This document shows, in pieces, positions 33,511-51,159 of a stretch of DNA of 64,000 nt. Positions within the stretch are counted from its first letter, which is position 1, and each line of letters opens with the position of its first letter. The position numbers and the translations under genes were made by a program. Location of the stretch: assembly GCA_000092065.1 (NCBI GenBank), contig CP000582.1; one strand, given 5' to 3'. Below the pieces are notes generated by a model that worked only from the letters and a program-made list of their open reading frames with translations, did no database searches and was not told where the DNA came from. Origin of the DNA: Ostreococcus lucimarinus (Eukaryota).

Positions 33511-36500
33511 TCAATCGCTCAATTCGTCCGCCGGAACGAAAGACGCCGGCGCCTTCTTCGCCTCGGCGACGTGTCGGTTCCGTTCCTGCTTCCTCTGTTG
33601 CGCTCGACCAGCGACCGGCGATCGGCGCGCGACATGCTTTGCCGCAGGCGATGGTTTGCGAAGTGGTGATGGTTCATCGTCTAACATCGCCAACTCGTCG
33701 ACGACGCGTTTCGCGAGCGCTTCAGATTTCGCCTTGCGACGGGGATCGTTCTTCGTCTGAATAACGACGCCGGGGTGACGAACAATCGGATGCGCGCGAC
33801 CATCGCCACCGCGCGATGATGTCGCCGACACGGGAACTGCGGTAAAGACTTCATCATACGGCGCTTGCTTTACGTGCTCCACGAACACGTTTCGCGTTTT
33901 GGCGTTCTCGATTAAATCCAGCCACACGGCCTCGCGTTTGAGCACCTCGGCGTAACCCACGATCCACGTCGAATATCGACCCCGCGTGAGCGCCACGTTT
34001 AATCGTCGCTCGTCTCTGAGAAAGCCGATATCCGTATTCGGCGGATCGGGGGCGACTTTGTCGCCTTCGGGGTACGCGCGAACGCACGAGATGATCACGG
34101 CGTCGAACTCTTGTCCTTGCACTTGATCAACGGTACCGTACGTCACATGCGCCCACGTCCGAAGCGCGCCATCTTTCTTCAACAATGGCTCCACGAAATC
34201 GCGCAAACGTCGCACTTGATCCAAGTAGGGCGTGATGATGCCAACCTTCACTTCACTCTTGTGGAGTTGCGCCGAGACGGCTATTTTCTTGTAACAATAC
34301 GACGCGAACTCTGCCTCGGCGGAATTGGAGAAGGAGCGCGCGCCAGTCTCGTAGCGATCTTGGTTCATTTGACCCTTAACGTTGAAGAACTGATACGGAC
34401 CGCAGTTAGAGAAGGAGTGCCACGGCGCGACGCGATCTTCGTAAAGAGCGCCGGCGCCGCTGCGCAGTAAACCTCTGTAAAAGCGTTCACTCGGAAACTT
34501 GACGATGTCTGGATGCATGCGATATTGATCCCGAAGCGTAAAAGTGGGTACACCACAGTCAGACAGACGTTCAAAAAGACTATATCCGTAATAGGCTCGC
34601 TGCGCTGATCTGGAGATGACAGTCGGTGCGAGCTGCTGCGAATCTCCGACCATGATTATGACGCCGTCGGGCTTGATCCACTGCAACGGAATCAGCGCCG
34701 CCGGCTCGACAGCTTGCGACGCCTCATCGATGATGACGACGTCAAAAGGTTGAACTGAGCAATACGGTCGCGAGTCAGCAGCGCGCGGTGCTGCGTTTGA
34801 CGGCTTTTTAACCAGTTGTGCCATGGAAGATAGCGTCCCGCACACGACATTTGAACGGTCGATGACGCGCTCAAAAGGCGTCGACACGACAACGCTGCCT
34901 TCAATTCTTCCCTCTTCGGCGAGTTTCGCCTTCAATTTCGCGTGCGCCGCGTCTTGGATCGCGAACAATTGAGCCTTCTTTGCTTCCAGATCGACTAGTG
35001 CCTGACTATACACCGGGACACTATCCTTAAAAGACTTTTGACGATTTCGCAATCGCGTGACTTCGAGTCGAATCTGCGCCTCGACTTTAGTTCTCTCCGC
35101 TTTCGCATCTCGAACCTTGCTCTCGTAATACGCTGCGTTTTGAGCGTACGTGTTGTTTTCGCGACCTTCTACGTCGACACCGTATTCTTTGAGCTTCGTG
35201 CGCACGTGACATCTCTCCGAAGCTGAACCAGACTTGATTTTTTCATCCGTACCGATTCGAGTGACGTCGACGCCTCGAAGGCATTTTCGTACTTCCGCGT
35301 GCACCGAAGATCCATCAACGAGCCGATCAACGATATGATCAATCGCGGCATTCGTTTGCGCCGTACATATAATTCTCTTCCGCACGGGATGACCATATTG
35401 GTCGACGCCGTTCAAAAGCGCCGCTATCAAGCTCACAATGACGTGCGTCTTCCCAGTTCCCGGTGGTCCTTGAATCAGCACCGGCAAGTCACGACTAGAT
35501 GCGTGCTCATGCGCGCAAGCACCGAGCACGGCTTGGCGCTGCATTGGATTTAGCGATGACTCAACCGCACTTAAAGCCGGCGCAGCGATGTACTGATCGG
35601 CATCGTCGAGGGTGTCGAACAACGACGAGAGCTGCAAAACTTTGTTGTTAATTCTCGATAGAAAATGCTCGCTCACGTCGAGCGCTTGCAGCTCTCGAAG
35701 CGTCGTCGCGAGCTCGAACACTCGCGTCACCTTAAGGCGAGTTTTCATGGTGTGAAGCTTGCGCGACATTGACGTTATACGCACGCCGGAGTTCGGGGCA
35801 AAGTGCATTCTGATAACGACAGTTTCGTTCGACGCATCCTTTTTCGCCGATTCCACCCAACCAAACACGTAGTGCGTCGCCCGTTCCTTCACGGGGCTCA
35901 ACGGGTCATCGTCCTCAAGAAGATCCATGTTTCGCTGTTCGAATGCGTACGAAATGGTTTCAATCATCACCAGATCGTCCGTTTTGAATACCGAACGAGC
36001 ATTGTCAGAGTTGGCTTGTGACGCGAGCGGCTTTGACAGCTCAAACGTTTCAAACACACTCGTCGAATTGGCTACGTCTTCTTGCCGAAGCTTTGACACG
36101 GTGAAGTCATCGCTGTAGAGTCGATCGCAGGTCTGGAGCGCACGATCTACGTTCGCGCGCAACTCGGCGAGAATGAGCGGAATGAAATGCTCTCTGTACT
36201 CGTGAGCGTTCGCGAACGACCTCGGCGGACTTTCGCGGCTTAAGCGACTGTCCTTCTCGTGTAGCGTCACATCCCCATGCCGCGCCTGCACCGTATCACT
36301 TTTGAACTGCTCTTTATTGAGGCACAGAATGCTTCGGATGAGCGTCTCTACGCGATATGGAGAGCGGCGCGAGCTTGATGGCTTGAACTGGCGGCTGACA
36401 TTGGAGACTGGCACAAGAGCCGGCGCACGCTCGGCACTGCTGACGGCGGGTAGGACAGTCATGTGCTTCTTCACTCTCGTCAGTGATGCATTAGATGTTG

Positions 36501-39500
36501 ACACTCGCTGCTTTGACTTCTTCGAGGTCGCTGAAGGTGGTGGCATCTCCATCACTGCAGTCGTCGTTTCTTTGCTGATTCGCCTCTGTTGCTGATTTAT
36601 CGCGTGATAATCCTTCGCTTTGGCAACCTGATAGCCCGACGTCGTCGTACTCACCCGTCCACGTGTAACGGCGGTTTCCGATAATTCTATCGACGCCACG
36701 GTTTTCCTGCGATCCAAGTTGTACGTTTTCGTGGTAGGTTCGCGCTTGCGCATTTTGAACGCCGACGACTTTGCCGCGTCACCCTTCGTCGACGACGGTG
36801 AGACATCCTCGTTGGATTTGCGCTTCACCGATGCGAATAGCTCCTTGGTAGCTTTGCGTTTGGGCCGCGTTTTCTTTTGGTCCGTCGGCCGCAACCATTG
36901 GGGGTCATTCGACGTCGGCTCGTCGTCCTCTTCATAGGGAGTAACTCCGAATTCTTCGTCTGAATCCAGCGCCGGGACCGCCGCGCTGATGCGATACGGC
37001 GATGAAGTCTCGGGAAGTGGTTCATCGATCACCACGACGTCTCCGATATTTTCTTTCTCTCCCTCGATGAATAGCGAAACCATCGAAAAGACACTCTTAA
37101 GCTTTTCTTTGATATTGTCGCTTAGTGCGGCGTCGCCGCGCATGCTCAATAGCTCGCGAACACGCTGGCGCCAATCACTCTCGTCTCGAATGCTCACGCC
37201 CGGTGAAGAGGGCTCATCTGAAACTTCAGTCTTGAACAATCCAATGCAATCCAGCCAAGCATCTGCGATCCCCTCCTCCGCTGACCCTATAAAGCTCGCG
37301 GGCTCCCAAGCGAGAAGATTCCTCAGAATGTTCGCCGGCTGCCTGTTGAAGATGTGCTCTTGCTCGCGTGCTTTGATCAATTTCCAGTACATCGTGAGCA
37401 TGCTCAACATACTGTAAAGAATGTCATCATCGGCAGCCAAGGCGCGTCGCGGCGCGTGCTGCGTGATCGTTTCGAACACACCGATTGAGGAAATCAACAC
37501 CTTGGTCACGTTCTCGCTAAACGTCCGCAAGCGCGCCTTGTCATCTTTATCGATCGCCTTCACGAGATGATGTGTCTGTACAATCGGCGCGCTCGCGGCC
37601 TTAAGTAGCTCGCTCACGTCTTCAGACGTTTCTGAAGGCATCCGTTTCACGTCTTTCAGTGCGCAGTGCGTCGCACCGAGCACCGCTTTGGGAATGTCCG
37701 TGTGCTCGTCGTCGAGAAACATCTTCTTGTAGCAGTTCTCTCTGTTATCTTCTGCGTAATGCTTCTTCAAAACTTCACCCGCAGCCGCTACCAGCGACGT
37801 GCGTTGTGACATCATGCACATTACCGCACCCTCGGTACACTTTGGAGTGTATTCGGAACGGTCAAGCGGCCTCTTGCTCGATTGGCTCTCCGGGCAGTCG
37901 AGTAACGATTTGAAAAACCATTCCCCACACTTGCCAAGAAACTTTCGCAAGCTATTCGCGTTCTCTTGGTTTTCCGGCACGATCTCAACATACGGAAAGA
38001 TACCACGCATCGCATCGTTTTCACTCTCGTCGTCATTCCGCGCGAATGGCGCGATGAGTCCCATGGCGTACATGACTGCGCTCACATATCGCGGTCTGAG
38101 GACGCCCGCGTGCATACTGTTGATCGCGGACATACTATCGAAACCTAAGGCGTACTTCCACATGCTCGTGTTGATTTTCCACCTCTTTTTCTGTCGAATC
38201 GTGTTCAAAATTTTCAAGTGCAACTCGCCCAACGGGGTCTCGCCTCTGATGCGCTTCTCTCGAGCCCATCTCTCCGGTTCGAAGGCAAAAAACGCCGGAT
38301 CAGCGAGCGCGCTCAAAGCGATGGCGTCGGCGCAAATGACGTATCCAATCGTGTCCACGAGACTACCACCTAATGCGTTTCGGGCTTTCGTCGCCTCTCG
38401 AGAAAGATCCCGGTCTGTGGCGACGCTCTTGGTCCAATCCATACCAACCGTACTGAACCAGTCGCCCAAAGTCAACACAGCATCGTCCACGCCGATTTCA
38501 GAGTACTGCTCCTCGACCGCTCTGCACGCGGCAAGGCGGCTGGCCCACTGTACTTCGGCGCTGAATGTCGCTTTTGAATGCGGGATATCTGCAGCGAGTA
38601 TGTTCATAACCTGCCTCGCCTGTACCGCGTCGCCCGTTGGAAGGAGAAGGTAGACGTACTTTAACGCAGTCAACGCGCAAATCTGTTCCGCCTTTCTATC
38701 TTTAGGCAGATTCAGCGCCGCTTGAAACAAATCTTCAATCAAATCCGCGCGATCAACGCCGACGCGTTCCCAAAACGATTTCGCCGCCTTCGGTCCACGA
38801 GGTAAAGCCTTGAGAATCACTTGGATGACTTCGCACGCGTTGCTCGAGAGCGCGCGCGCGCCTTTTTCGTTTGATCGTTTCATGGCGCATGCCGCCAAAC
38901 GGAAGACGATGGGATGCGTCGTGAACACCTCGCGCACTATTTGGCTATCGCTTCGCTCTAACGTATACGCCAGCGCAAACCATAGCCGTGCCTCCACCGG
39001 GACGAATGGCTCGTGATCCTTGGGCACGTCGTCGCGAATCTCCTCGCACAATGTGCGCCTCGCCGATTCTCTCTCCACCTGAGCTCGGGCTAAACACTCG
39101 ATCCAAAACGCCAACACCTCGTCCACAACGTCCCTGAGCGCGTTATCGCTCGTCAACGCTCGCATGCGCGTCTGTGGTAACCCCGTATCTGCATCCATCA
39201 CCGGCTCGCCGTTTTCATCCGTCTCGGGCTCCGACAACAACTCCTTAACCGACTGTCTCGTCTTGCTGTCATCGATCGCGAGCAGCGCAAACAGTCCCGG
39301 AAACGACCCACACGGTCGCTCCCGTATCTCTCGCATCAAAGAATTCGCCCACTCATCCCCACCCGCCTTCGCCTTCTCGCAAGTCTCCGCGAACGCCCGC
39401 GCCGCCGCCTCGTAAATCGCCCGTCCTCTCGCCGGCGCCGGCGCCGTCAAAATCTCCCTCAACGCGTTCCCTCTCGCGCACTCCCTCAAAAATTCCGTCT

Positions 39501-39909
39501 CTATCCGATCACTCGTTCCTTCGCAATCAAATCCTCGCTCAACGCGTTCAAAATCAAACCTCAACCGTTCGTTCTGAGTCGCCTCTTCGTCTCCCGTCGA
39601 CTCGACGCCGCCTCGCGCGTCTCGCGCGTCTCGCCGCAGCTCCAAAAACCCATCCAGGCACCGCTCGCACGTCGACGTGCAGTTCACGCTCACGACGCGC
39701 GCGTTCTGTCCCTCATCGACGCGTCCGCGTCGCGTCGCGCGATCGACGCGGCGTTTCGCGACGTCGAGATCGCGCGCGTTCGCCACGAGCGTCGCGTCGT
39801 TCGCGAGTTCGCGCTCGAGGGCGTCGTACGCGATGCGCGCGACGTCGGCGTCGCCGCAGTACGCGTGCGTGCGCTCGACGTCGGTGAGCTCTTCGAACAG
39901 GCGCGGCAT
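33511..39909 (-). CDS. SEN1/senataxin-like superfamily-1 RNA/DNA helicase (Upf1-like helicase core at C-terminus)
   Basis: 2133-aa single exon; C-terminal helicase motifs LIQGPPGTGKTHV (Walker A), VVIIDEASQ (DEAS box), NVALTRGRYSTWIVG; long helical N-terminal region as in Sen1. ATG at 39909 (MPRLFEEL). Confidence 0.8.
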   Translation of the reverse strand: MPRLFEELTDVERTHAYCGDADVARIAYDALERELANDATLVANARDLDVAKRRVDRATRRGRVDEGQNARVVSVNCTSTCERCLDGFLELRRDARDARGGVESTGDEEATQNERLRFDFERVERGFDCEGTSDRIETEFLRECARGNALREILTAPAPARGRAIYEAAARAFAETCEKAKAGGDEWANSLMREIRERPCGSFPGLFALLAIDDSKTRQSVKELLSEPETDENGEPVMDADTGLPQTRMRALTSDNALRDVVDEVLAFWIECLARAQVERESARRTLCEEIRDDVPKDHEPFVPVEARLWFALAYTLERSDSQIVREVFTTHPIVFRLAACAMKRSNEKGARALSSNACEVIQVILKALPRGPKAAKSFWERVGVDRADLIEDLFQAALNLPKDRKAEQICALTALKYVYLLLPTGDAVQARQVMNILAADIPHSKATFSAEVQWASRLAACRAVEEQYSEIGVDDAVLTLGDWFSTVGMDWTKSVATDRDLSREATKARNALGGSLVDTIGYVICADAIALSALADPAFFAFEPERWAREKRIRGETPLGELHLKILNTIRQKKRWKINTSMWKYALGFDSMSAINSMHAGVLRPRYVSAVMYAMGLIAPFARNDDESENDAMRGIFPYVEIVPENQENANSLRKFLGKCGEWFFKSLLDCPESQSSKRPLDRSEYTPKCTEGAVMCMMSQRTSLVAAAGEVLKKHYAEDNRENCYKKMFLDDEHTDIPKAVLGATHCALKDVKRMPSETSEDVSELLKAASAPIVQTHHLVKAIDKDDKARLRTFSENVTKVLISSIGVFETITQHAPRRALAADDDILYSMLSMLTMYWKLIKAREQEHIFNRQPANILRNLLAWEPASFIGSAEEGIADAWLDCIGLFKTEVSDEPSSPGVSIRDESDWRQRVRELLSMRGDAALSDNIKEKLKSVFSMVSLFIEGEKENIGDVVVIDEPLPETSSPYRISAAVPALDSDEEFGVTPYEEDDEPTSNDPQWLRPTDQKKTRPKRKATKELFASVKRKSNEDVSPSSTKGDAAKSSAFKMRKREPTTKTYNLDRRKTVASIELSETAVTRGRVSTTTSGYQVAKAKDYHAINQQQRRISKETTTAVMEMPPPSATSKKSKQRVSTSNASLTRVKKHMTVLPAVSSAERAPALVPVSNVSRQFKPSSSRRSPYRVETLIRSILCLNKEQFKSDTVQARHGDVTLHEKDSRLSRESPPRSFANAHEYREHFIPLILAELRANVDRALQTCDRLYSDDFTVSKLRQEDVANSTSVFETFELSKPLASQANSDNARSVFKTDDLVMIETISYAFEQRNMDLLEDDDPLSPVKERATHYVFGWVESAKKDASNETVVIRMHFAPNSGVRITSMSRKLHTMKTRLKVTRVFELATTLRELQALDVSEHFLSRINNKVLQLSSLFDTLDDADQYIAAPALSAVESSLNPMQRQAVLGACAHEHASSRDLPVLIQGPPGTGKTHVIVSLIAALLNGVDQYGHPVRKRIICTAQTNAAIDHIVDRLVDGSSVHAEVRKCLRGVDVTRIGTDEKIKSGSASERCHVRTKLKEYGVDVEGRENNTYAQNAAYYESKVRDAKAERTKVEAQIRLEVTRLRNRQKSFKDSVPVYSQALVDLEAKKAQLFAIQDAAHAKLKAKLAEEGRIEGSVVVSTPFERVIDRSNVVCGTLSSMAQLVKKPSNAAPRAADSRPYCSVQPFDVVIIDEASQAVEPAALIPLQWIKPDGVIIMVGDSQQLAPTVISRSAQRAYYGYSLFERLSDCGVPTFTLRDQYRMHPDIVKFPSERFYRGLLRSGAGALYEDRVAPWHSFSNCGPYQFFNVKGQMNQDRYETGARSFSNSAEAEFASYCYKKIAVSAQLHKSEVKVGIITPYLDQVRRLRDFVEPLLKKDGALRTWAHVTYGTVDQVQGQEFDAVIISCVRAYPEGDKVAPDPPNTDIGFLRDERRLNVALTRGRYSTWIVGYAEVLKREAVWLDLIENAKTRNVFVEHVKQAPYDEVFTAVPVSATSSRGGDGRAHPIVRHPGVVIQTKNDPRRKAKSEALAKRVVDELAMLDDEPSPLRKPSPAAKHVARRSPVAGRAQQRKQERNRHVAEAKKAPASFVPADELSD

Positions 39910-40004
39910 CGCGCGCGCGCGCGCGCGCCACTGGCGACGGGCGTCCGTCGATCGTCGTCGCGACCACCGGTCGCACTTTAAGCCTCGCCTCAACCGCCGT
40001 CGAC

Positions 40005-41240
40005 ATGCGAGTCTCGGTGCACGTCGCCGAACTCGACCTCATCGTCAACGTCGACGTCTCTCCGGACTGTACGGTCGCAGACCTCAAAGCTGCCGTCGCC
40101 TGTGAGTTCCCAGACGGCGATCCGCGCGATATAACGCGCGCCAAAGTTTTGAAAGATGCCAAGCAGATTCCAGATGCGTCAAGTTTACGCGACGCCGGCG
40201 TCGTGCAGGACGACCTGTTGATCGTGTCGCTGGGTGCATCCGGTGGGGAAAGCATCGCGTCGGCGGACGCGCGCGCGCTTGCGGCGGATGGTAGCGCAGT
40301 GGACGCGCAGGCGATGATGGAGAGTTTTCGCGGCAACGCCGGCACGCTCGAGGCGTTGCGTCGGCAGGGAGGAAGCGAACTCGTCGATTGCATCGAAGCG
40401 AACGACGTGGAGGGGTTTCAGAGAATGATGCGGGAGATGCGGAAACGGATGTTAGCGGCGAGGGAACAGGAGGCGGAGGAGATGGCGTTGATGACGAGCG
40501 ACCCGTTCGACGTCGAGGCGCAGCGGAAGATTGAGGAACGCATCCGACAAGAACAGGTGTTAGGCAATTTTGCGACCGCGATGGAGGAAACGCCCGAGGC
40601 ATTCGCTCAGGTGGTGATGCTATACGTCGATCTGGAGGTGAATGGAGTGGCGCTGAAGGCGTTTGTCGATAGTGGGGCGCAGATGTCGATCATGTCGGTG
40701 ACGTGCGCGCGACAGTGCGGACTGGAAAGGCTCATCGACAAGCGGTTTAGCGGCATCGCGAAAGGCGTGGGGACGCAGAACATCATTGGACGCGTGCACC
40801 AGGCACCGATGAAGGTGGGTGAACACTTCTTGCCGTGCGCGATTACGGTTTTGGAGAAGGAACAAGACATGGACTTCATCTTTGGTTTAGACATGCTGCG
40901 CAGACACGCGTGCTCCATCGACTTGAGGAAGAACGCCCTCGTTATCGGCTCGGTCGACGTGGAGTTGCCGTTTTTGAGCGAGAGCGAAATTGGAAAGACA
41001 GCACAGGAAGCGTTTCAAGGCAAAGCGCCCGAGGCGGCGATCCCGACCCCCTCGGCGGCGGTCCCGACCCCCTCGCCGGCGGTCCCGACGCCCTCGACGA
41101 CGCCTTCGTCTTCGTCGGCGCACGACGAAGAAAAAATTGCTCGATTAACCGCGCTCGGCTTTTCTCGGCAGCAAGTTATCGACGCCTTGAACGCGACGAG
41201 TGGTAACGAAGAGTTTGCGGGTGCGCTATTGTTCGGTTAA
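40005..41240 (+). CDS. DDI1: DNA-damage-inducible protein 1 (ubiquitin-like domain plus retropepsin-like aspartyl protease plus UBA)
   Basis: N-terminal UBL (MRVSVHVAELDLIVNVDVS...); protease core MLYVDLEVNGVALKAFVDSGAQMSIMS with the D-S/T-G-A active site; C-terminal UBA EEKIARLTALGFSRQQVIDALNATSGNEEFAGALLF. Confidence 0.85.
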   Translation: MRVSVHVAELDLIVNVDVSPDCTVADLKAAVACEFPDGDPRDITRAKVLKDAKQIPDASSLRDAGVVQDDLLIVSLGASGGESIASADARALAADGSAVDAQAMMESFRGNAGTLEALRRQGGSELVDCIEANDVEGFQRMMREMRKRMLAAREQEAEEMALMTSDPFDVEAQRKIEERIRQEQVLGNFATAMEETPEAFAQVVMLYVDLEVNGVALKAFVDSGAQMSIMSVTCARQCGLERLIDKRFSGIAKGVGTQNIIGRVHQAPMKVGEHFLPCAITVLEKEQDMDFIFGLDMLRRHACSIDLRKNALVIGSVDVELPFLSESEIGKTAQEAFQGKAPEAAIPTPSAAVPTPSPAVPTPSTTPSSSSAHDEEKIARLTALGFSRQQVIDALNATSGNEEFAGALLFG

Positions 41241-41336
41241 ACGCTGTTGTCATGAATGAAACGATCTTGTATGCGACTAAAGCGAGGTGTGAATTGTTCG
41301 GGTAAATGCTGTTGTACGACTAAAGCGAAGCGTGAA
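41227..41336. repeat. Imperfect direct repeat (about 66 plus 44 bp) in shared 3' UTR region between DDI1 and PFL
   Basis: attgttcggttaaacgctgttgt...gactaaagcgaggtgtga followed by attgttcgggtaaatgctgttgtacgactaaagcgaagcgtgaa. Confidence 0.6.
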
Positions 41337-43707
41337 AAGTACGAGCGATGACTTCCTCTTGATGTGCTCGCGAGAGTTTGATGAAATTCACCGCATACCC
41401 GCTCACGCGAATGGTGAGGGTGGGATAGTTGTCTGGATGCGCCATGGCGTCTAACAGTACCGATCTATCGATACAGTTAACGTTCAAATGTTGAGCGCCG
41501 TGTGAGAAGTAGCCATCCAGCAACGCAGTCAAGTTCGAGACTCGAGTCCCGTCCGTCTTGCCGAGCGATGGCGCGGTGATGGAGAACGTGTTGCTGATGC
41601 CATCCATGCAACTCGCGTACGGGATCTTTGCCACAGAATTGAGTGAATTCAAAGCACCCGTCTTGTCGCGATTGTGCATCGGATTCGCGCCCGGCGCGAA
41701 CGGTTCACCGAGTTTTCGCAAATCCGGCGTCGCGCCAGTATGTTTCCCGTACATGACGTTGGACGTAATCGTCAGAATCGAAAGCGTGTGCTCGGATCCT
41801 CTATACGCTGGCGTCTTTCGTAAACTCGAGATGAACGTTTCCACAACACTGGCGGCGATGGTGTCAACCTCATCGTCGTCGTTGCCAAACGCGGGCCAAT
41901 CGCCATCGACCTCGAACCGAGTGGATAATCCCGACTTTTCGTCGCGAATCATCTTGACTTTTGCGTGCTTGATGGCGCTGAGAGAGTCGGCCACAACGCT
42001 CAACCCAGCGATGCCGAACGCCATCATCCGCTTGCAATCGGTGTCCATGAGCGCGAAAAACAAGGCCTCGTAGTTGAATCGATCATGCGAGTAGTGGATG
42101 CAGTTCATCGTCTCCACGTAAAGCTTGGCGAGCCAGTCCATGTACGCCGTAAAACGCTTCATCACGTCATCGTATTGTAAAACACCTTCAGGAACTTCGT
42201 CGTCGAAAAGCGCGGGCGCGACGCGGGCGCCGGTGATTTCGTCGCGACCGCCGTTCAGCGCGTAGAGAAGAAGCTTGGGTAGATTGCATCGCGCGCCGAA
42301 ATATTGCATGGTATGCCCCAACTGCATTCCCGACACGCAACAACTGATACCGACGTCGCTCGATTGAAACTTTTCCCGCAGTAAGTCGTCGGAGATGAAC
42401 TGAATTGAGCTCGACTCGATGCTGATCGCCGCCGCGAATTCTTTAAACGGCTTCGGCAACGATTCGCTCCACAAAACCGTCATGTTTGGTTCCGGCGCCG
42501 CGCCCATGTTGCGTAGCGTTTGTAGAAACCTCCAAGAAGTCTTCGTCACCAACGTGTCGGTGCCGTTCATCTGCATGCCACCCACGCAACACGTGGCCCA
42601 GATGGGATCGCCGGCGAAAATGTCGTCGTACGCCTCCGGTCGAAGATGCCGAACGAGTCTCAGCTTGAGCACAAAATTGTCTATGAGTTCCTGCGCGCCC
42701 GATTCGTCGATGAAACCAGCCTTCATGTCGCGCTCGATGTACACATCAAAAAAAGCGTCGACTCGACCGAGAGAAATCGCCGCGCCGTCGTGTTCCTTCA
42801 CGCACGCGAGGTAGGCAAAGTACGTCCACTGAACCGCTTCTTTGCAATCGCGCGCGGCGGCGCCGATGTCGAAACCGTACATTTTTGCCATCGCCTTGAG
42901 CCGCTCCAACGCGCGAATTTGCTCCGACACCTCAAATCGTGCGCGCAAGTCCTCCTCGTCGCTCGTCGCGATGGCATCTTTGTCGATTTGCTTCTCCGCG
43001 ATCAACCGATCGACGCCGAACAGCGCCACGCGGCGATAATCCCCGATCAAGCGCCCTCGTCCGTACGCGTCCGGGAGCCCGAGCAAGAGATGCGCCTTCC
43101 TCGCCGATCGCATTTCATCCGTGTACAAGTCGAAAACCGCGTCGTTGTGCGTCGTGACCCAATCGTCAAAAAACTTCTTCGCGTCCTCCTTCATCGTCGC
43201 GCCGCGCTCGCCCAGCGCCTTCTCCACCACGCGCAACCCTCCCAACGGCTTCATCGTCCGCGTGAGCGCGCGCGTCGTCTGCAGCCCGACCACGACGTCG
43301 TCCACCTCCTTCGACAGCACGTACCCCGCGCCGTGCGACGTCGCTCGCGACGGCGTCTCCGCATCCACCGCCAGCGCCCCTCCCGCGCGTCGCTCCAGCT
43401 CGAGCAACCGCCGCGCCTCCGCCAGCAGTTCCAGCGTCTTTCCCGTCGGTTTCGCGAGCGTCGTCGCGCAGTCGTCCGCGCGCGGCGTTCCGCGCGCGCG
43501 CACGAACGCGTCCACCGCGTCCACCGCGAGCGTCATGTCGTCGTCGTCGTCGCGCTGTGCCGCGCGTCGTCTCGCGTCGTCTCGTCTTCTCTCGTCTCGG
43601 CTCGGCTCGGCTCGGCCGAGAACGTCGATTCGCATCCCGACCGAACCGTCGCGAGATTCGCGTCGACGGTCGACCGCGCGCCACCCCCCCCGGCGTTCGC
43701 GCGACAT
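41320..43707 (-). CDS. PFL: Pyruvate formate-lyase (glycyl-radical enzyme, formate C-acetyltransferase) with organellar presequence
   Basis: Colinear with PFL: ...[24 protein letters not shown]...; active-site Cys pair in [10 protein letters not shown]; C-terminal glycyl-radical motif [33 protein letters not shown]. Arg-rich N-terminus from the ATG at 43707. Confidence 0.9.
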
Positions 43708-43759
43708 TCCGAGGCGACGCGCGCGAATCTCGACGGCCGCCGACGCGCGCGCGCGGGCG

Positions 43760-46700
43760 ATGCGCGCGCGATGGGACGCGCGACGCGCGGGACGCGCGCG
43801 CGCGGTCGTCGCGGTCGTCGTCGCGGCGCTCGCGCTCGCGAAACGGGCCGCGGGGGCGACGCACGCGGTGACGATCGAGACGGGATCGGCGCTGAGCGGA
43901 CGACGCGACGCGGCGACGGGGACGCAGGAGGCGCTGATCATGGTGACGCACCCGGCGGACGTGACGGTGGACGAGGCGGACAAGGCGAAGCTGACGAAGG
44001 TGTTTAAGACGCAGACGGAGGCGTACTTCGCGTGGGCGTCGTACGGGGCGCTGACGCTGAACGTGTCGGTGTTCTTTCATCAGCTCGGTTCGAACGAGAA
44101 GGACGCGAACGGGGCGTGTAATCCTCACCCGGATGCGTCGGCGGCCGACGGCGTGCATTATAACCCGTGGGATGCGAGCGCTGATTTTCAAGAAGTGTAC
44201 GATTCGTACGCGGGCGACCCCGGGACGAACCGAAACTCGGGAAGGAAACACATGCGGACGTTCATGCATTTGACGAACACGTGCACGGGGACGTGCGAGT
44301 CGAACACGAACGGCATCATCTGCACGCAGAAGCACTCGTCGGTCACGGCGTGCGCCGACGCGGATTCCACGACGGAGTTGTGCGATACGACGGAGATTCA
44401 CGAGCTTTTACACGCAATCGGGCTCAAATATCACTCGGGCGGGTACAAGTGCAAGCAGTCGGATTACGACGACTCGACTACGACGTGGCGGCTCTGTGAG
44501 TACAAAGATTACGGTGGCGTCTTCGATGTCTTGGGCTCGGGCTCGGACACGTACGGGAAAAAGATGGCGTGGGGCGTTTCTTCGTATTTAAGATGGGACA
44601 TGCACTGGCTCTCTAACGATAACGTGAAAGTCATCACGAAGACCAACGGACGCGTTGACGACGACGCGGCTGATGTGAGTGAAACGTGCATCCTGAGTTC
44701 GTTGAGTGTTGATACGACGGAGTCCTCGACAACGCGCGCGTGCGTCGTTCGTTTCTCTGATGATACCATGTCGGATTTGGGTACGATCTGGCTCGAGCTT
44801 CGAAGTGGCAACAAGTTCGACAATCTTATCCTTAACGGCGAGCACAGCGGATTCAACTCTCTCGGTGTGCTCGGTTATCACGAAGGGAACAAGTTGATTG
44901 ATTTCTACCCACACGCCGCTGATTCAACAGACGCTGCGAAATACGACGACTGGGAACAGACGGCGCTGAGATCGACAGAAAACGGCGGCGTTTGGATAGA
45001 CCCCGTGTCAGGACTAAAGTTAACGGTAGCCGCGTTCGATTCAACATCTCAAACGATCACGGTTACCGTCACGTTTGGCCAACCGGCGGAGTGCAGCAAA
45101 AGAGGCGCGAAGGCGTATCCGAGTCAGTTTCTTGGCTACGGGGTGTGGCACGTCCGCATGTCAAACGACAGCGAGAAAGATAAGTATTATCCAAGCGTCA
45201 ATTTGGCCGATTATCCCGGCGACGCCTCGTCGATCACGAATGACAACTTCAGAACCAATTATTTCACGACTTCTTACTTTGATCAGTACATCCCTTATGC
45301 TGATAGCGGAATTCAGTATACGGTGCAACAAAAAGAATGCTATAAAGTCGTGCTGCAGTATAGAATGAGCGTGCAAAATTTGGATTACGGCGCGTGCGCG
45401 AAATCTCACTTGACAGTGCGCGGGTTGAATCTGCCCGCCGGTTGGCGAGTTGACGAGGGCGGATGCGTGAACGCAGCAGGCGCACAAGCAGTCGTCGACG
45501 ATATATGTTTCGTCGTCGCCGTGGACCCGAACACTGCCGATGGCGCTTACGAAATCCGAATCCAAGCCGCTCAAATCAACTACAGCGATAAAGCAGTGAT
45601 GGCGGCTACGGAGACTGTCCCACTCTGGGTTTGCGTGGGCGGATACAACCATTATACTCAAGCGTGGGGTGACAACGCTTGGACGTGTGACTACGGGCCC
45701 GTGGGATCTAAAACCAGGGTGACAGGTAGTTCTGGCACAATAATCAACCGGGCGTCGAGTACGTACGAGGCGAGCTCGACGTATTATTCGACTTCGGACG
45801 TCTCAGCGAGGAAGAGCAGCACGGCGATTCATTACACCCGGAATCCTGAGGTCACGAACGACGGCGCTGACCGTCTGCAATCAATGTCCAGTATCGCGAT
45901 CGCAGAAGTGAGCGATGATCGTTGTTATCAAGTTACGAGCACGCGATACTGCTCGGCCAACCATTACGTCTGGAGTCAGTACGTCTGTTCGGCGTGTCCG
46001 ACAGACTCAACCCGCCCTGAAGGCGATGATAGCTGGCTGGCCGACGGCGAGACACAGTGCTCGTGTCCAGACGGAACCGCTTGGTCAAACGGCATGTGTG
46101 TCCCTGCCGCCTCGTGCTCCGCGGACGAACGCGTGAACAGTGCCGGTGCGTGTGTGGCGTGTCCATCTGGCTCGACGAACGAGGCGGGTGACGTCGCACC
46201 TGGGACCGAGACCAAGTGCGCTTGCGCCGCGAACTATCGCGTGAACAGTGCTGGCGCGTGCGAGGCGTGTCCATCTGGCACGACGAACGCGGCGGGTGAC
46301 GTCGCACCTGGGACCGAGACGCAGTGCGACTCTGCCGCCTCGTGCTCCGCGGACGAACGCGTGAACAGTGCTGGTGCGTGCGAGGCGTGTCCATCTGGCT
46401 CGACGAACGCGGCGGGTGACGTCCCATCCGCGGGCGAGACGCAGTGCGCTTGCGCCGCGAACTATCGCGTGAACAGTGCCGGTGCGTGCGAGGCGTGTCC
46501 ATCTGGCTCGACGAACGCGGCGGGTGACGTCCCATCCGCGGGCGAGACGCAGTGCGCTTGCGCCGCGAACTATCGCGTGAACAGTACCGGTGCGTGCGAG
46601 GCGTGTCCATCTGGCTCGACGAACGCGGCGGGTGACGTCCCATCCGCGGGCGAGACGCAGTGCGCTTGCGCCGCGAACTATCGCGTGAACAGTGCCGGTG

Positions 46701-47653
46701 CGTGTGTGGCGTGTCCATCTGGCTCGACGAACGCGGCGGGTGACGTCGCACTTGGGACCGAGACCCAGTGCGTCTGCAATGATGGCTACTCACTTTTGAA
46801 TGGTGAGTGCGTTGAGTCAACCGAGGTTGAAGTCAAGGTTGAGTTCGCGGGAATCACACAAGTCATCGACGATACCCTCGTGCAGACGCTCCAAAACGCG
46901 CTGACGACGTCGCTTTTGGCAGACACCACTGGCGTTCAAGTGGACCCGGCTAATATCACCATTAAGTACACGATGCTAGGAAAGCAAACGTTCTCGTCCC
47001 CTGTGGATGAAAGCTCGTTCATCACCGCCGCCGCGTCGTCGTTGGGTGTCGCCACGTCTGACATTGAGAACTTTGCGCAAAGCGCGGCGCGCAGGCGTCT
47101 ACTCAGCAACATCGTGACGTATCAAGTCGTGACGACGAATAGAGCGACGTTGAACACAGCTTTGTCTGCGGCAAGCTCTCCAATCACCGTCGGCGGCGTG
47201 ACTGGAACGGGTGCCGCACCGACGACGACGATAGCCGCCGAAATCAAGACAGCGATCCCGACTTCGCAGGCGTCCACCGTCACTGCGACTCTCAATGATC
47301 CATCCTTCACTACGGATATCGCAACATCAGCCTCGAACGCGGGTGTCAGTGGTATCTCGATCTCTTCGCCGCCGTGCACTGGACTCACGCAGCCTGCGAA
47401 CGGCGTTTCTGGTACGTGCGGCTCCGAGCTCGCCAGCGGCTCGTCGTGTCAACCGACGTGCAACTCTGGGTACACCGTGAGTGGCCAGACGACATGCATC
47501 GCCGGTGCGCTCACGGCCGCGACGTGCTCGAGTAACAGCGGCTCATTATTTGGCGGCTTCTTGGGCTTAGTATCCGCCGCAGGTGTTCCGCTCTTCCACG
47601 TTGACACAATTTTGCTCGCAACGGTCGCGCTAGGCGCGCTACTCGCGCCGTAA
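43760..47653 (+). CDS. Large secreted/GPI- or TM-anchored metzincin-type zinc metalloprotease with about 7 ephrin-receptor-like Cys-rich repeats and a sushi-like domain
   Basis: Signal peptide [27 protein letters not shown]; zinc motif [15 protein letters not shown] (HExxHxxGxxH); tandem [25 protein letters not shown] modules (ephrin-receptor-like/TNFR-Cys); Ser/Thr-rich stalk; PPCTG...[17 protein letters not shown] (CCP-like); C-terminal hydrophobic tail [29 protein letters not shown]. Confidence 0.7.
46100..46790. repeat. 108-bp near-identical coding tandem repeat x about 6-7 (ephrin-receptor-like modules)
   Basis: Blocks gcagtgcgcttgcgccgcgaactatcgcgtgaacagtgccggtgcgtgcgaggcgtgtccatctggctcgacgaacgcggcgggtgacgtcccatccgcgggcgagac repeat almost perfectly at the nucleotide level. 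Confidence 0.85.
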
Positions 47654-47841
47654 ATTCGGCGACGCCACCCGAAAGAATGTATCATCACTTAAATCCATCG
47701 CTCACGCGCATCGATCGTCAATCGTTCGCGTGATGAATTGCTATTAGTAACTTGTTTTCCTCTCGCCTCGTCTCGAAAGTCGATTCTTATCCCGAGACTC
47801 TGCACTCCACGCCACTTCGCGACGACGACGACGAACGAAAA

Positions 47842-48816
47842 ATGCGCGACGACGACGAAAAAGCCCAACCAAAAAGCCCAACATTTTGCTTTGCCACCAA
47901 GCGCCGCGGAGCTTTTCCGCCACGTCCGCGACCGATCGTTTTCCTGCCGCCCGAGCGCAACTACGCGGCGCGGGGCTTGGGGCTGCTCGGCGGCGACCCG
48001 GCGAGCGCGGCGGACATCGAGGACTGCGGTGCGGTCACCGGGCGCGTGCACAGCATCGATACTTTCACCGCGGTCGATGGACACGGAATACGATGCATCG
48101 TGTTCCTTCAAGGGTGTGAAAAACGATGCGCGTTTTGCTGCAACGTCGATTCGACGCACGCCGCGCTCGCGAAGACGCCGAATCCCGGGCGCACGATGTC
48201 GGTGAACGATATAGTCGAAATTTTGAAGCGAAATCGCAAGTATTACGCGAGCTCGGAGGGAGGTGGGCTAACGCTTTCCGGGGGCGAATGCCTGTTGCAA
48301 CCGGCGTTCGTGGAGGCGGTGGCGATCAAGACGCACGAGATCGGCTTGACGGTGGCGATCGACACCGCCGCCAGTGGGGACGCGGAGACGTGGAATCGCG
48401 TGTTGCCGCACGTTGACGTGGTGCTGTTGTGCGTGAAGAGCTCGAGTTTGGAAAAATACAAAGCCATCACCGGTACGACGGAACGCGAGTACGAGACAAT
48501 GCGCGCGTTTCTGAAAGAATTGAATCGCCGCCGTGTGAAAACTTGGTTGCGATTCGTGCTCATGAGCGATCCGGATTCTCGATTCGTCGACTTTCGAACG
48601 AACGACGAAAACGAGCTCCGCGGTCTGGCGGAGCTCGCGAAAACACACGAGTGTGTTGAGGGAATTGAGCTTTTGCCCTATCACAGATTCGGCGAGTTTA
48701 AGTTCAGCGAGCTCGGTCTCGAGTACAAGCTCGAGGGCATGCGGACGCCCGACGCTGAAGAAATTCACGCGGCGCAGACGTTTTTGCAATCTCAAGGCGT
48801 GACGGTGATTTGCTGA
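47842..48816 (+). CDS. PFLA: Pyruvate formate-lyase activating enzyme (radical-SAM glycyl-radical activase)
   Basis: GRVHSIDTFTAVDGHGIRCIVFLQGCEKRCAFCCN carries the CxxxCxxC cluster motif in the PFL-AE context; GGGLTLSGGECLL SAM-binding motif. The ORF-track start is TTG; first ATG at 47842; an upstream exon cannot be excluded. Confidence 0.8.
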   Translation: MRDDDEKAQPKSPTFCFATKRRGAFPPRPRPIVFLPPERNYAARGLGLLGGDPASAADIEDCGAVTGRVHSIDTFTAVDGHGIRCIVFLQGCEKRCAFCCNVDSTHAALAKTPNPGRTMSVNDIVEILKRNRKYYASSEGGGLTLSGGECLLQPAFVEAVAIKTHEIGLTVAIDTAASGDAETWNRVLPHVDVVLLCVKSSSLEKYKAITGTTEREYETMRAFLKELNRRRVKTWLRFVLMSDPDSRFVDFRTNDENELRGLAELAKTHECVEGIELLPYHRFGEFKFSELGLEYKLEGMRTPDAEEIHAAQTFLQSQGVTVIC

Positions 48817-48864
48817 CGCGCTAAGATGCTACGTTTCGTACAAATACAACAATCGATTACAATT

Positions 48865-50550
48865 CTAAAACCACGCCGCGCCGCTGTGCGCGTCGTAAAA
48901 CGCGCGAGCCGTCGTGATCTCCGATGGCGTCGCGAGAAGCGTCGACGCGCCGGCTTCGACCACTCTAGCCACCACGTAATCTCCCGCTTTAATGTCCACC
49001 TCCTTTCCGCTAGAATTACTAAACGCGCGCTTACCTTGTATGACGACGCGCTTGCCGGTGTCCGATCGCCCGCTCATCTGCGCCTCGGGATCCTTTTTGC
49101 TCGCGCCTTCGACGAGCACCAAGTGCGTCCGACCGACTTCCGCGGCGTTCGCCTCGAGCGCGCGACGACGGAACGTCGCGATAACTTCCGCAAGCCTCCG
49201 TTTTTTCACATGTTCTGGAACGTCGTCTTCCAAATTTCTGGCCGCGTGCGTCTTCTCGCGCAATGAATAGTGAAACATGAACGCCTGCTCATAGCGAACG
49301 TCTTCGAGCAGCGAGAGCGTCTCCGCGTGCTCGTCCTCCGTTTCACCGCAAAAGCCGCTGATGAAATCGCTCGAGAGCGCGACACCCGGAATCATCTCGC
49401 GCGCGCGCTTGATTAAATCCAAGTACACCTCTCGCGTGTATCCGCGTCGCATGCGCTCCAAAGTCGAGGTCGATCCGCTCTGCGCGGGCATGTGCAATTG
49501 CTTGCAAACGTTTGGCGTCTGAGCGATGACGCGTAATAAATCGTCTGGGAAATCTTTCGGATGCGGCGACGTGAACCGCACGCGTACCTCCTGGTCCAAG
49601 CCCGCGACGGCGGAGATGAGGTCCGCGAACGTGCGCGCGCCCTCGCGCTTTGGCTTGTACACCGATTTGAATCCTTTCGCGTACGCCGCGAACGGGTCGT
49701 CGTCCGCCGACGTCGTCGCCTTCATCGGCGCGTCCGCGTATGAGTTCACGTTTTGACCCAGCAAAGTGATTTCCTTCACGCCCTCCGCGATCAGCCCGCG
49801 CGCTTCGTCGACGACGGATTCGAAAGGTCGACTTCGCTCCCGTCCTCGCGTAAACGGCACCACGCAAAACGCGCACATGTTATCGCATCCTCGCATCACC
49901 GAAACGTACGCCATCGGCGACCCCACGTCTCTCCGCACCGGTCGCACGTCCGCGTACGTCTCATCCAACGACAACAGCACGTTCATCCGGTGTTCCTCGC
50001 TCAAATCGCTCAACCGTCGAGTCGAATTTTCCAACAGCCTCGGCACGTCCCTGTACGCATCCGGCCCGCACACCAAATCCGCCAAATCCTCCGTCTCCAG
50101 TAATTTCGCCTTCAATCGCTCCGCCATGCACCCCAAGACGCCGACCGTCGTCAACGCATGTCCCGCGTCTCGCTTCAGCGCCTTCAACTGCCGCAATCGC
50201 GTCCACACGCGCGACTCCGCGTTGTCGCGCACCGCGCACGTGTTCACCAGCGCCGCCGTCGCCTCGCGCAGGTCCTCCGTCGTCGCCACGCCGTGCGCTC
50301 GCAGAACGCTCCGCACGACGTCCGAGTCCGAGACGTTCATCTGGCATCCGTACGTCTCGATGTACACGCGCGTCGGCGCGCGCGTCGTCGTCGCCGTCTT
50401 CGCCGCCGCCGAGTCGCGCGCCGAATGCGTCGCGCGCGCCGCCTCCACGACGCGCGCGCCGACCGCCGTCCCGCCGAATCCGTCGCGCGCGCGCGTCGCG
50501 GACGCCGCCGCGCGCCGCAGACGCATCGCCGCGTCGCGCGCGCGCGTCAT
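48865..50550 (-). CDS. MiaB-family tRNA methylthiotransferase (CDK5RAP1/MiaB-like radical-SAM MTTase), organelle-targeted
   Basis: MTTase N-domain RVYIETYGCQMNVSDSDVV; radical-SAM GCDNMCAFCVVPFTRG; C-terminal TRAM region. ATG at 50550. Confidence 0.8.
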   Translation of the reverse strand: MTRARDAAMRLRRAAASATRARDGFGGTAVGARVVEAARATHSARDSAAAKTATTTRAPTRVYIETYGCQMNVSDSDVVRSVLRAHGVATTEDLREATAALVNTCAVRDNAESRVWTRLRQLKALKRDAGHALTTVGVLGCMAERLKAKLLETEDLADLVCGPDAYRDVPRLLENSTRRLSDLSEEHRMNVLLSLDETYADVRPVRRDVGSPMAYVSVMRGCDNMCAFCVVPFTRGRERSRPFESVVDEARGLIAEGVKEITLLGQNVNSYADAPMKATTSADDDPFAAYAKGFKSVYKPKREGARTFADLISAVAGLDQEVRVRFTSPHPKDFPDDLLRVIAQTPNVCKQLHMPAQSGSTSTLERMRRGYTREVYLDLIKRAREMIPGVALSSDFISGFCGETEDEHAETLSLLEDVRYEQAFMFHYSLREKTHAARNLEDDVPEHVKKRRLAEVIATFRRRALEANAAEVGRTHLVLVEGASKKDPEAQMSGRSDTGKRVVIQGKRAFSNSSGKEVDIKAGDYVVARVVEAGASTLLATPSEITTARAFYDAHSGAAWF

Positions 50551-50583
50551 GGACGCGACGTCCGTCCGTCGCCGCGCGTCACG

Positions 50584-51159
50584 ATGCGGCGCGCGTCGTG
50601 GACGCTCGCCGCGCCCGCGCGCGCGTTCGCCGCGCGTCGGCGCGCGCACGGCGCGCTCGACGCGATCAAATCCTGGCTCGCCGGCGCCGACCGCGAGGAC
50701 GACGACCTGTCGATTCGCGACTACGTGTCCGCGCTCGAGCGCGCCGAGGTCGAAAGATTTTCGAGCTCGGACGCGCGCGCGAAGTCACCGGCGGAGATCT
50801 CGTTCCCGGCGTCGCGCGCGCGCGCGTACGTCGACACGATGACGGCGCGCGAGCTGGAGGATCCGGGCGCGATGTCGGCGAGACGGCGGCGCGAGCTCGG
50901 CGCGCGCGCCGAGGTGGATGAGTTGCTCAGGGCGCACGCGCTGACGCGCGCCGTCGCGCGGCGGACGAAGGCGATGACGACGACGCCGACGTCGCCGGAG
51001 GCGCTGGCGGAGGCGCTGCGGGACGGGGATGCGAACATGTCGACGGCGCAGCGACGGCGCGAGGCGGCGGCGATGCGAGGCGCGTTTCCGGGCAATCGAC
51101 CGTGTCCGTGCGGGTCGAACAAAAAGTTTAAGCGCTGTTGCGGCGTGCCGACGAGCTAA
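50584..51159 (+). CDS. SEC-C motif (CPCGSxKKxKxCCG zinc knuckle) protein, UPF0225/YchJ-like, organelle-targeted
   Basis: C-terminus GNRPCPCGSNKKFKRCCGVPTS is the SecA-C-terminal metal-binding motif; presequence-like start MRRASWTLAAPARAF. Start codons of this gene and the divergent MiaB-like gene are only about 33 bp apart. Confidence 0.55.
   Translation: MRRASWTLAAPARAFAARRRAHGALDAIKSWLAGADREDDDLSIRDYVSALERAEVERFSSSDARAKSPAEISFPASRARAYVDTMTARELEDPGAMSARRRRELGARAEVDELLRAHALTRAVARRTKAMTTTPTSPEALAEALRDGDANMSTAQRRREAAAMRGAFPGNRPCPCGSNKKFKRCCGVPTS

Follow-up and report, generated by a model that had tools for sequence, protein, structure and literature searches.

We analyzed a 64,000-nucleotide stretch of the Ostreococcus lucimarinus genome (the window; all coordinates are positions in this whole stretch), in which the genes for pyruvate formate-lyase (PFL) and its activating enzyme (PFL-AE) lie on either side of a long third gene. 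The initial annotation had proposed that PFL and PFL-AE were a linked unit later split by a protease gene. Comparison with related algae agrees with this proposal, because their insert-free loci carry the two enzyme genes head to head. It is probable that a divergent PFL/PFL-AE pair was split, in the lineage leading to O. lucimarinus, by a ∼4.16-kb insertion carrying the gene for a putative secreted metallopeptidase of InhA/M6-like kind.

The window is gene-dense (62% GC), and the genes concerned follow one another in the order DDI1 (plus strand), PFL (minus), the middle gene (plus), PFL-AE (plus), and MiaB (minus). PFL (41320–43536, minus; Pfam PFL-like and Gly_radical) has 738 residues when read from its conserved start, MTLAV. 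The middle gene (43760–47653, plus) is an open reading frame (ORF) of 1297 residues with its ATG at 43760. PFL-AE (47842–48816, plus; Pfam Fer4_12 and Radical_SAM) is a radical-SAM glycyl-radical activase of 324 residues, the same residue for residue as XP_001416074.1 / ABO94366.1 of O. lucimarinus CCE9901. All four ORFs first described from PFL to MiaB exist; the part of that layout that changes is the PFL start, which had been put at 43707, and the metzincin label of the middle gene is not seen by sequence libraries.

The head-to-head pair and the polarity of the insertion

Genomic contexts were collected for PFL-AE homologues, 25 loci in all. At all insert-free loci, PFL (minus) and PFL-AE (plus) are immediate head-to-head neighbors with ATGs 9–117 bp apart. 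These loci are chromosome 2 of O. tauri (L011; 117 bp as annotated, 9 bp from a homology-supported upstream ATG), the Ostreococcus-type loci L012 (63 bp), L015 (96 bp), and L016/L017 (105 bp), and L020, a Bathycoccus-type contig (53 bp; 49% GC) whose protein cluster includes B. prasinos CAL6372792.1. The linkage is therefore not peculiar to one genome. The middle gene is present in the window and in L001–L010, all of them O. lucimarinus, with the PFL and activase ATGs ∼4.3 kb apart in the window. It is also present in L019, a close sister (dS 0.04–0.18), where the ATGs are ∼6.3 kb apart. From DDI1 to MiaB, gene order is as in the window in all 10 of the independent wild metagenome contigs that encode an identical PFL-AE. 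That the insert is an artifact of assembly is very unlikely.

PFL and PFL-AE were concatenated (987 gap-free columns), and neighbor joining with 200 bootstraps and the Bathycoccus-type contig as outgroup gave the topology (Bathycoccus-type, (L016, (L012, ((L015, O. tauri), (L019, (window, L001)))))). Bootstrap support is 100% for the insert-bearing clade and 93–96% for the nodes that nest it among the insert-free lineages. By this comparison of loci, Ostreococcus and Bathycoccus inherited PFL and PFL-AE as a tight divergent pair, into which the middle gene was inserted in one lineage. Since the insert-bearing lineages form a fully supported clade within insert-free ones, the best reading is that the insertion happened once.

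The reverse polarity, in which the middle gene stood between PFL and the activase from the start and then disappeared in separate events from O. tauri/L015, L012, L016, and Bathycoccus, is highly improbable. In its favor, the gene family predates the O. lucimarinus lineage, with homologues in O. mediterraneus, Triparma (a bolidophyte), and a choanoflagellate, and gene loss is frequent in such compact genomes. However, it requires at least four precise losses, each restoring a spacer of 9–117 bp, where a single gain suffices. Moreover, the O. mediterraneus-type homologue sits at another locus, and the spacer element that L015 has once occurs as a direct duplication around the gene.

The duplicated spacer element and the source of the insert

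A direct repeat of ∼66 bp lies in both of the spacers around the middle gene, at 43601–43668 and at 47762–47827. Its local alignment score of 34 compares with 22 ± 3.3 in dinucleotide shuffles and was reached by 5 of 1000 shuffles. The first copy falls in the 223-bp spacer between PFL and the inserted gene (43537–43759, 73.5% GC); its core, AACGTCGATTCGCATCCCG (43621–43639, plus strand), is separated by 85 bp from the ATG of PFL and by 120 bp from that of the new gene. The second copy falls in the 188-bp spacer between the inserted gene and PFL-AE (47654–47841, 50% GC), with its core, AAAGTCGATTCTTATCCCG (47776–47794, plus strand), 47 bp upstream of the PFL-AE ATG. Written as the degenerate pattern AAVGTCKMTTCNNRTCCCG, the core has exactly two copies in every insert-bearing locus, both on the plus strand and one on each side of the middle gene. 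It has one copy in L015, within the intact PFL/PFL-AE spacer, and none elsewhere among the 25 loci, including L018, the locus of an O. mediterraneus-type homologue of the middle gene. Removal of one repeat copy and of everything between the copies reconstructs an ancestral spacer of ∼144 bp or less, in keeping with the 53–117 bp measured elsewhere. The inserted DNA thus comes to ∼4.16 kb and carries one intronless gene.

These observations suggest a simple course of events. The ancestral locus would have been the divergent PFL/PFL-AE pair of the Ostreococcus–Bathycoccus group, and the insertion of ∼4.16 kb into its spacer of at most 144 bp would have duplicated ∼66 bp of the old spacer. PFL would then have kept one copy of the element, now common to it and the new gene, and the activase would have kept the other.

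Several points weigh against this account. Because the core pattern was derived from the two copies and then found, meeting it in the window adds no independent evidence; independent support comes from the single L015 copy at the expected place and from L019, where both copies are conserved. The two flanking copies are short and have diverged, and the shuffle test, at ∼0.005, is not overwhelming. Around the insert there are no terminal inverted repeats, no poly-A tail, and no transposase, only low-complexity GACGAC matches. As for the comparison of lineages, L012, L015, and L016 are known as metagenome contigs only, and Ostreococcus clade B (RCC809) is outside the set. On the separate question of a foreign origin, GC content gave no signal, with 59% in the insert, 58–60% in PFL, PFL-AE, and DDI1, and 64.5% in MiaB.

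The distance between PFL and the new gene bears on how the two might be regulated. The initial annotation had counted 52 bp between the ATGs of PFL (43707) and the middle gene (43760) and had seen in them a shared bidirectional promoter, but this spacing depends on an unconserved upstream ATG. The in-frame ATG at 43707 would add 57 residues, very rich in Arg, Asp, and Glu, that lack conservation even in L019, the close sister. Homology to all other lineages and to Escherichia coli PflB starts only at the Met at 43536 (for the other lineages, at residue 7–8 of the 738-residue model). Because of both facts, the 223-bp spacer appears likelier than one of 52 bp.

At the starts of both enzyme genes there is also a (GACGAC)n run, immediately 5′ of or across the start of PFL (43538–43562, minus) and of PFL-AE (47810–47858, plus). 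The two runs form an inverted repeat (88% over 25 nt, 100% over 15 nt). No such run was seen at the O. tauri or L012 starts, and this may be only low-complexity sequence.

The head-to-head pairing of PFL with the protease gene, at first regarded as an odd functional coupling, is most simply a by-product of the insertion site. We find it unlikely that the protease gene was recruited for coregulation with PFL from a bidirectional promoter, for example, as a surface protease in darkness or anoxia, and that the three-gene block is a selected module. Such recruitment would accord with the position of the first copy of the old spacer element, which lies between PFL and the new gene at 85 bp and 120 bp from their ATGs, and with the retention of the arrangement in all wild contigs and in L019. 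However, retention over so short a divergence (dS ∼0.04–0.18, window vs. L019) is no proof of selection on gene order. A member of the same family sits at an unrelated O. mediterraneus locus, without the element, and no known biochemistry connects a secreted protease with a glycyl-radical enzyme. Less likely again is a more far-reaching pair of possibilities: that duplication of the spacer core placed a hypervariable surface metalloprotease under PFL/PFL-AE regulation, presumably in the dark or at low oxygen, or else that the ∼66-bp duplication is the footprint of an undescribed kind of single-gene relocation in Mamiellales. Were regulation shared in this way, O. lucimarinus would remodel its cell surface on switching to fermentation.

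The insertion reading raises the matter of where the gene came from. Its close homologues are limited to Ostreococcus-type sequences (26 matches in a database-wide word-indexed search). A cluster at 54% identity includes UniRef A0A7S0KHB6 of O. mediterraneus, which is encoded at L018, a different locus; there it adjoins PsbP-, PPP4R2-, and MJ1567-like genes, and the repeat element is lacking. Neither the word-indexed nor the exhaustive HMMER search turned up another copy of O. lucimarinus type or any homologue in O. tauri. Because there is a homologue at L018 and no second O. lucimarinus copy, we infer that the middle gene arrived by relocation, or by duplication followed by loss of the source copy. 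A local move within the window was considered and rejected, since the neighbor genes of L018 and L024 are absent from it. L024, the context of one MJ1567-like orthologue, has no metalloprotease gene beside that orthologue; the remaining neighbors are different ones, and no homology links the small flanking genes. The O. mediterraneus-type locus L018 has a GC content of only 54%, as opposed to 58–65% at other Ostreococcus-type loci, and may lie in a low-GC outlier chromosome region.

The product of the inserted gene

The middle gene is a real gene, because 8 of 10 wild contigs carry an intact ORF (the exceptions are a 200-N scaffold gap and a frameshifted contig, possibly an assembly error), its dN/dS between the window and L019 is 0.47 (N-terminal 742 codons; 0.17–0.41 in neighboring genes), and two of its homologues come from MMETSP transcriptomes. 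The encoded protein has a signal-peptide-like N terminus, an InhA/M6-like metallopeptidase domain, and a conserved β-rich region to about residue 780. Then come variable Cys-rich 36-residue repeats, a conserved C-terminal region with a Cys-patterned module, and a hydrophobic C-terminal tail. The tail is predicted to be a glycosylphosphatidylinositol signal or a membrane anchor, and the protein is probably anchored at the cell surface. The repeats are encoded by a tandem 108-bp array at 46096–46875 (plus strand), in which TRF finds six copies of period 108, with 88% matches, corresponding to 36-residue Cys-rich units. Copy number differs among wild O. lucimarinus contigs, giving proteins of 1113–1297 residues, and the L019 protein, at 1927 residues, has additional modules.

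Sequence libraries say little about this protein. It has no Pfam match at E ≤ 10 except cEGF (E = 6.6) and no NCBIfam match at E ≤ 0.001, and alone it has no PDB sequence match at E ≤ 10. Membership in MEROPS family M6 was likewise not detected by sequence, there being no Peptidase_M6/InhA-like match in Pfam (E ≤ 10) or NCBIfam (E ≤ 0.001). Among 1.84 billion cluster representatives scanned exhaustively with HMMER, only 46 are relatives, including proteins of the bolidophyte Triparma eleuthera and a craspedid choanoflagellate.

The evidence for a metallopeptidase comes from a conserved motif and a predicted fold. The zinc motif (12 residues, 44399–44434) corresponds in a family alignment of 26 members (20–61% identity) to HExxHxxG-L-x-Y-H, kept in at least 90% of them and followed by C...W-R-x-C...E-Y-G...D-V-L-G. 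When the family profile was compared with the PDB, all eight weak matches were metzincins, adamalysin FII, myroilysin, astacin, and MMP-16 among them. These matches (E = 0.05–1.3) cover the zinc motif only and have a one-residue gap before the last His (e.g., adamalysin, myroilysin). An AlphaFold2 model of residues 34–480 (447 residues, 34 sequences) reached a pLDDT of 82.7 and a pTM of 0.85, and its predicted fold matches that of the metzincin catalytic domain, which is defined by a five-stranded sheet, an active-site helix, and a lower subdomain. The top 50 Foldseek matches to it are all metallopeptidase-type domains: InhA2 comes first, then ADAM (including noncatalytic ADAM22), ADAMTS, fragilysin, and snake-venom enzymes. 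From sequence and model together, the protein is best described as a putative secreted metzincin-like metallopeptidase. The secreted metzincin of the initial annotation thus finds support in a conserved HExxH-type motif and in the predicted fold, but the protein is invisible to Pfam and NCBIfam and departs from the canonical spacing.

That departure is the first of several points that count against a working peptidase. The extended zinc motif of metzincins is HExxHxxGxxH/D. In the middle protein, the His that would be the third ligand is at +11 and not at +10, a spacing constant across the family, so that the HExxHxxGxxH/D pattern is not found; given this shift, the protein could be inactive or could use a different ligand. 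A first AlphaFold2 run, on residues 34–780 (747 residues, eight close homologues), gave a pLDDT of 34. The Foldseek matches are weak, with E-values of 2e-3 or more, and the first of them, InhA2, is 14% identical in sequence.

The middle ORF might, in consequence, encode a noncatalytic surface adhesin or glycoprotein with a relic metallopeptidase fold, which we consider somewhat unlikely. Besides the noncanonical motif spacing and the presence of ADAM22 among the fold matches, more than half of the protein consists of Cys-rich repeats and unassigned regions, and the number of repeats differs within the population, a trait of many adhesins. Set against this, the H, E, and H of the motif and the distal H are kept in at least 90% of the 26 members despite overall identities of 20–40%, a pattern such as a working active site would show.

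If the protein is indeed a metallopeptidase, it stands apart from the known ones. Compared with InhA (thuringilysin; MEROPS M6, Bacillus), it is only 14% identical, its host is a eukaryote, and its C-terminal part, made up of variable Cys-rich repeats and a hydrophobic tail, is unrelated in architecture. Its motif, HExxHxxGxxxH, differs from the HExxHxxGxxD of M6. Relative to adamalysin/ADAM, astacin, fragilysin, and other metzincins, it has one extra residue before the third His, and these score far under the InhA2 match.

The two enzymes, their linkage, and the neighboring genes

The two flanking enzymes were identified from domains, alignments, and motifs. PFL matches Pfam PFL-like (1.4e-177) and Gly_radical (2.2e-34), and it matches E. 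coli PflB (1h16) from end to end (E = 4e-236, residues 10–737 against 27–758). Its catalytic pair, Cys399–Cys400 in the 738-residue model (42337–42342), lies in ISCCVSGM, which aligns with PflB IACCVSPM (C418/C419). Its radical glycine, Gly713 (41398–41400), lies in TIRVSGYAV, identical to E. coli around G734 (RVSGY motif). PFL-AE matches E. coli PflA (8fo0) at E = 1.2e-32 and has the CxxxCxxC motif, CEKRCAFC, at 48115–48138, as well as a GGG-T-SGGE SAM motif. Its activase signature region, GHGIRCIVFLQGCEKRCAFCCN, aligns with PflA and contains the full signature, CxxxCxxC included; the signature G-x-G-x-R-x3-F-x2-G-C-x3-C-x2-C-x-N is that of PROSITE PS01087. The initial annotation had named the glycyl-radical-activase motifs as the place where its identification could fail; they are present. 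The adjacency to PFL in relatives further supports the assignment.

Both enzymes score slightly under the bacterial equivalog cut-offs of their best NCBIfam models. PFL has TIGR01255 as its best model by far, at 936 bits for an equivalog cut-off of 994.2. For PFL-AE, the best model is TIGR02493 (PFLA; 2.8e-60, 203.6 bits for a cut-off of 231.75), and the next is the generic TIGR02494. We read these low scores as eukaryotic divergence because no other family comes close. Since PFL and PFL-AE keep all catalytic motifs, they presumably still work as in other algae. PflA reductively cleaves S-adenosylmethionine at a [4Fe-4S] cluster and abstracts a hydrogen atom from the PFL glycine. In O. lucimarinus, the cluster of the activase, with S-adenosylmethionine, would put the radical on Gly713 of PFL, which would then split pyruvate into acetyl-CoA and formate without oxygen.

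The two proteins differ at their N termini. PFL-AE has an extension of ∼63 residues relative to E. coli PflA, and PFL has none relative to PflB, being ∼17 residues shorter. If the PFL-AE extension were a targeting peptide, the two enzymes would be predicted to reside in different compartments.

The same two proteins are known as PflB/PflA in E. coli and PFL1/PFLA in Chlamydomonas, and the O. lucimarinus pair shares the E. coli catalytic residues (the Cys–Cys pair, the RVSGY glycine, CxxxCxxC, and the GGE SAM motif). Gene arrangement sets the systems apart. Bacterial pflB and pflA form a linked, co-oriented operon, whereas the Ostreococcus-type and Bathycoccus-type pairs are linked but divergent, and that of O. 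lucimarinus is additionally separated by an unrelated 3.9-kb gene. The pairs of O. tauri, L012, L015, L016, and L020 fit with the head-to-head pairs of functionally coupled genes in compact Mamiellales genomes; the O. lucimarinus pair, in contrast, is broken by an insertion that duplicated the spacer core.

The expectation that PFL and PFL-AE are usually unlinked in eukaryotes holds in part. They are apart in Vitrella brassicaformis, with no PFL within 10 kb of PFL-AE, and in L013, but they are linked in the Bathycoccus-type contig and fused in a eukaryotic metagenome contig. The fusion is found on two Tara metagenome contigs (L021:2095-3687 and L022:2895-4487; 44% GC, intron-bearing, eukaryotic) as one 530-residue ORF, P0045. 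In it, a PFL C terminus (PFL-like 546–647 plus Gly_radical) is joined to a complete radical-SAM activase, and upstream on the same strand lie PFL fragments resembling exons. P0045 is thus an apparent natural PFL::PFL-AE gene fusion, and the tandem or fused order of L021/L022 mirrors that of the bacterial pflB–pflA operon. This order fits a joint entry of the two genes into eukaryotes, as attributed to Stairs et al. (2011) where PMC6856725 cites that work. The divergent Mamiellales arrangement would need one inversion from a tandem order.

We found no description in the searchable literature of the PFL/PFL-AE arrangement in Mamiellophyceae or of the disruption of the pair. As far as that literature goes, three things are new: PFL and PFL-AE stand closely head to head in Ostreococcus-type lineages and in a Bathycoccus-type contig, O. 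lucimarinus has a datable insertion there with a duplicated spacer core, and the inserted gene falls in an InhA-like family that lacks annotation and has a variant zinc motif. Because PFL and its activase form a textbook system and the genome was made public in 2007, this work is of value mainly as an explanation; it clearly resolves an ordinary kind of genome evolution. The intact pair of O. tauri and the split pair of O. lucimarinus, with its duplicated spacer core, make a natural experiment. Their comparison asks how far a shared bidirectional promoter matters for balanced expression of enzyme and activase. With its variant zinc motif and with repeats that vary within the population, the small marine-protist family to which the inserted gene belongs may prove interesting for work on the cell surface or on virus–host relations in Ostreococcus.

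On the far side of PFL-AE lies the MiaB/CDK5RAP1-type tRNA methylthiotransferase gene (48865–50649, minus; Pfam UPF0004, Radical_SAM, and TRAM), convergent with PFL-AE, with 48 bp between the stop codons. It scores 410.7 bits with TIGR01574 (cut-off 355.3) and has the motif CDNMCAFC; its true start is probably an internal Met. The convergent adjacency is present in every Ostreococcus-type locus (L001–L019) and in L013/L014, and FtsZ takes the place of MiaB in the Bathycoccus-type L020. L013/L014 are more distant, 69%-GC Mamiellales-like contigs in which PFL-AE and MiaB are convergent neighbors and DDI1 is 9 kb away; in L013 (20 kb examined), PFL is not within 10 kb of PFL-AE. The PFL-AE/MiaB adjacency is at least as widespread as that of PFL and PFL-AE, because it is kept in L013/L014, where PFL is absent from the 20 kb examined. 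MiaB is a tRNA-modifying enzyme (i6A37 methylthiotransferase), and we know of no role for it in glycyl-radical chemistry. The second radical-SAM gene said to abut the glycyl-radical module is thus confirmed in identity and convergence, but it represents conserved synteny, with FtsZ in its place in L020, and not a component of the glycyl-radical system.

On the other side, PFL has the same left-hand neighbor at every Ostreococcus-type locus, a DDI1-type ubiquitin-associated aspartyl protease gene (40005–41240, plus; Pfam Asp_protease, UBA, and Ddi2_HDD). Farther left, in the window and in L019, a SEN1/UPF1-type helicase gene of 2160 residues (33511–39993, minus; AAA_11/AAA_12) abuts DDI1. The same position is occupied in the ten wild O. 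lucimarinus contigs, O. tauri, and L015 by a giant polyketide synthase gene of ∼7300 residues. To the right of 39972, the ten wild contigs and the window share ∼99% identity, and homology ends ∼33 bp upstream of the DDI1 ATG (40005). At the helicase/DDI1 junction, the cultured reference therefore agrees with the more distant L019 and not with its closest wild relatives. This difference could be a presence/absence polymorphism of the polyketide synthase gene or a rearrangement.

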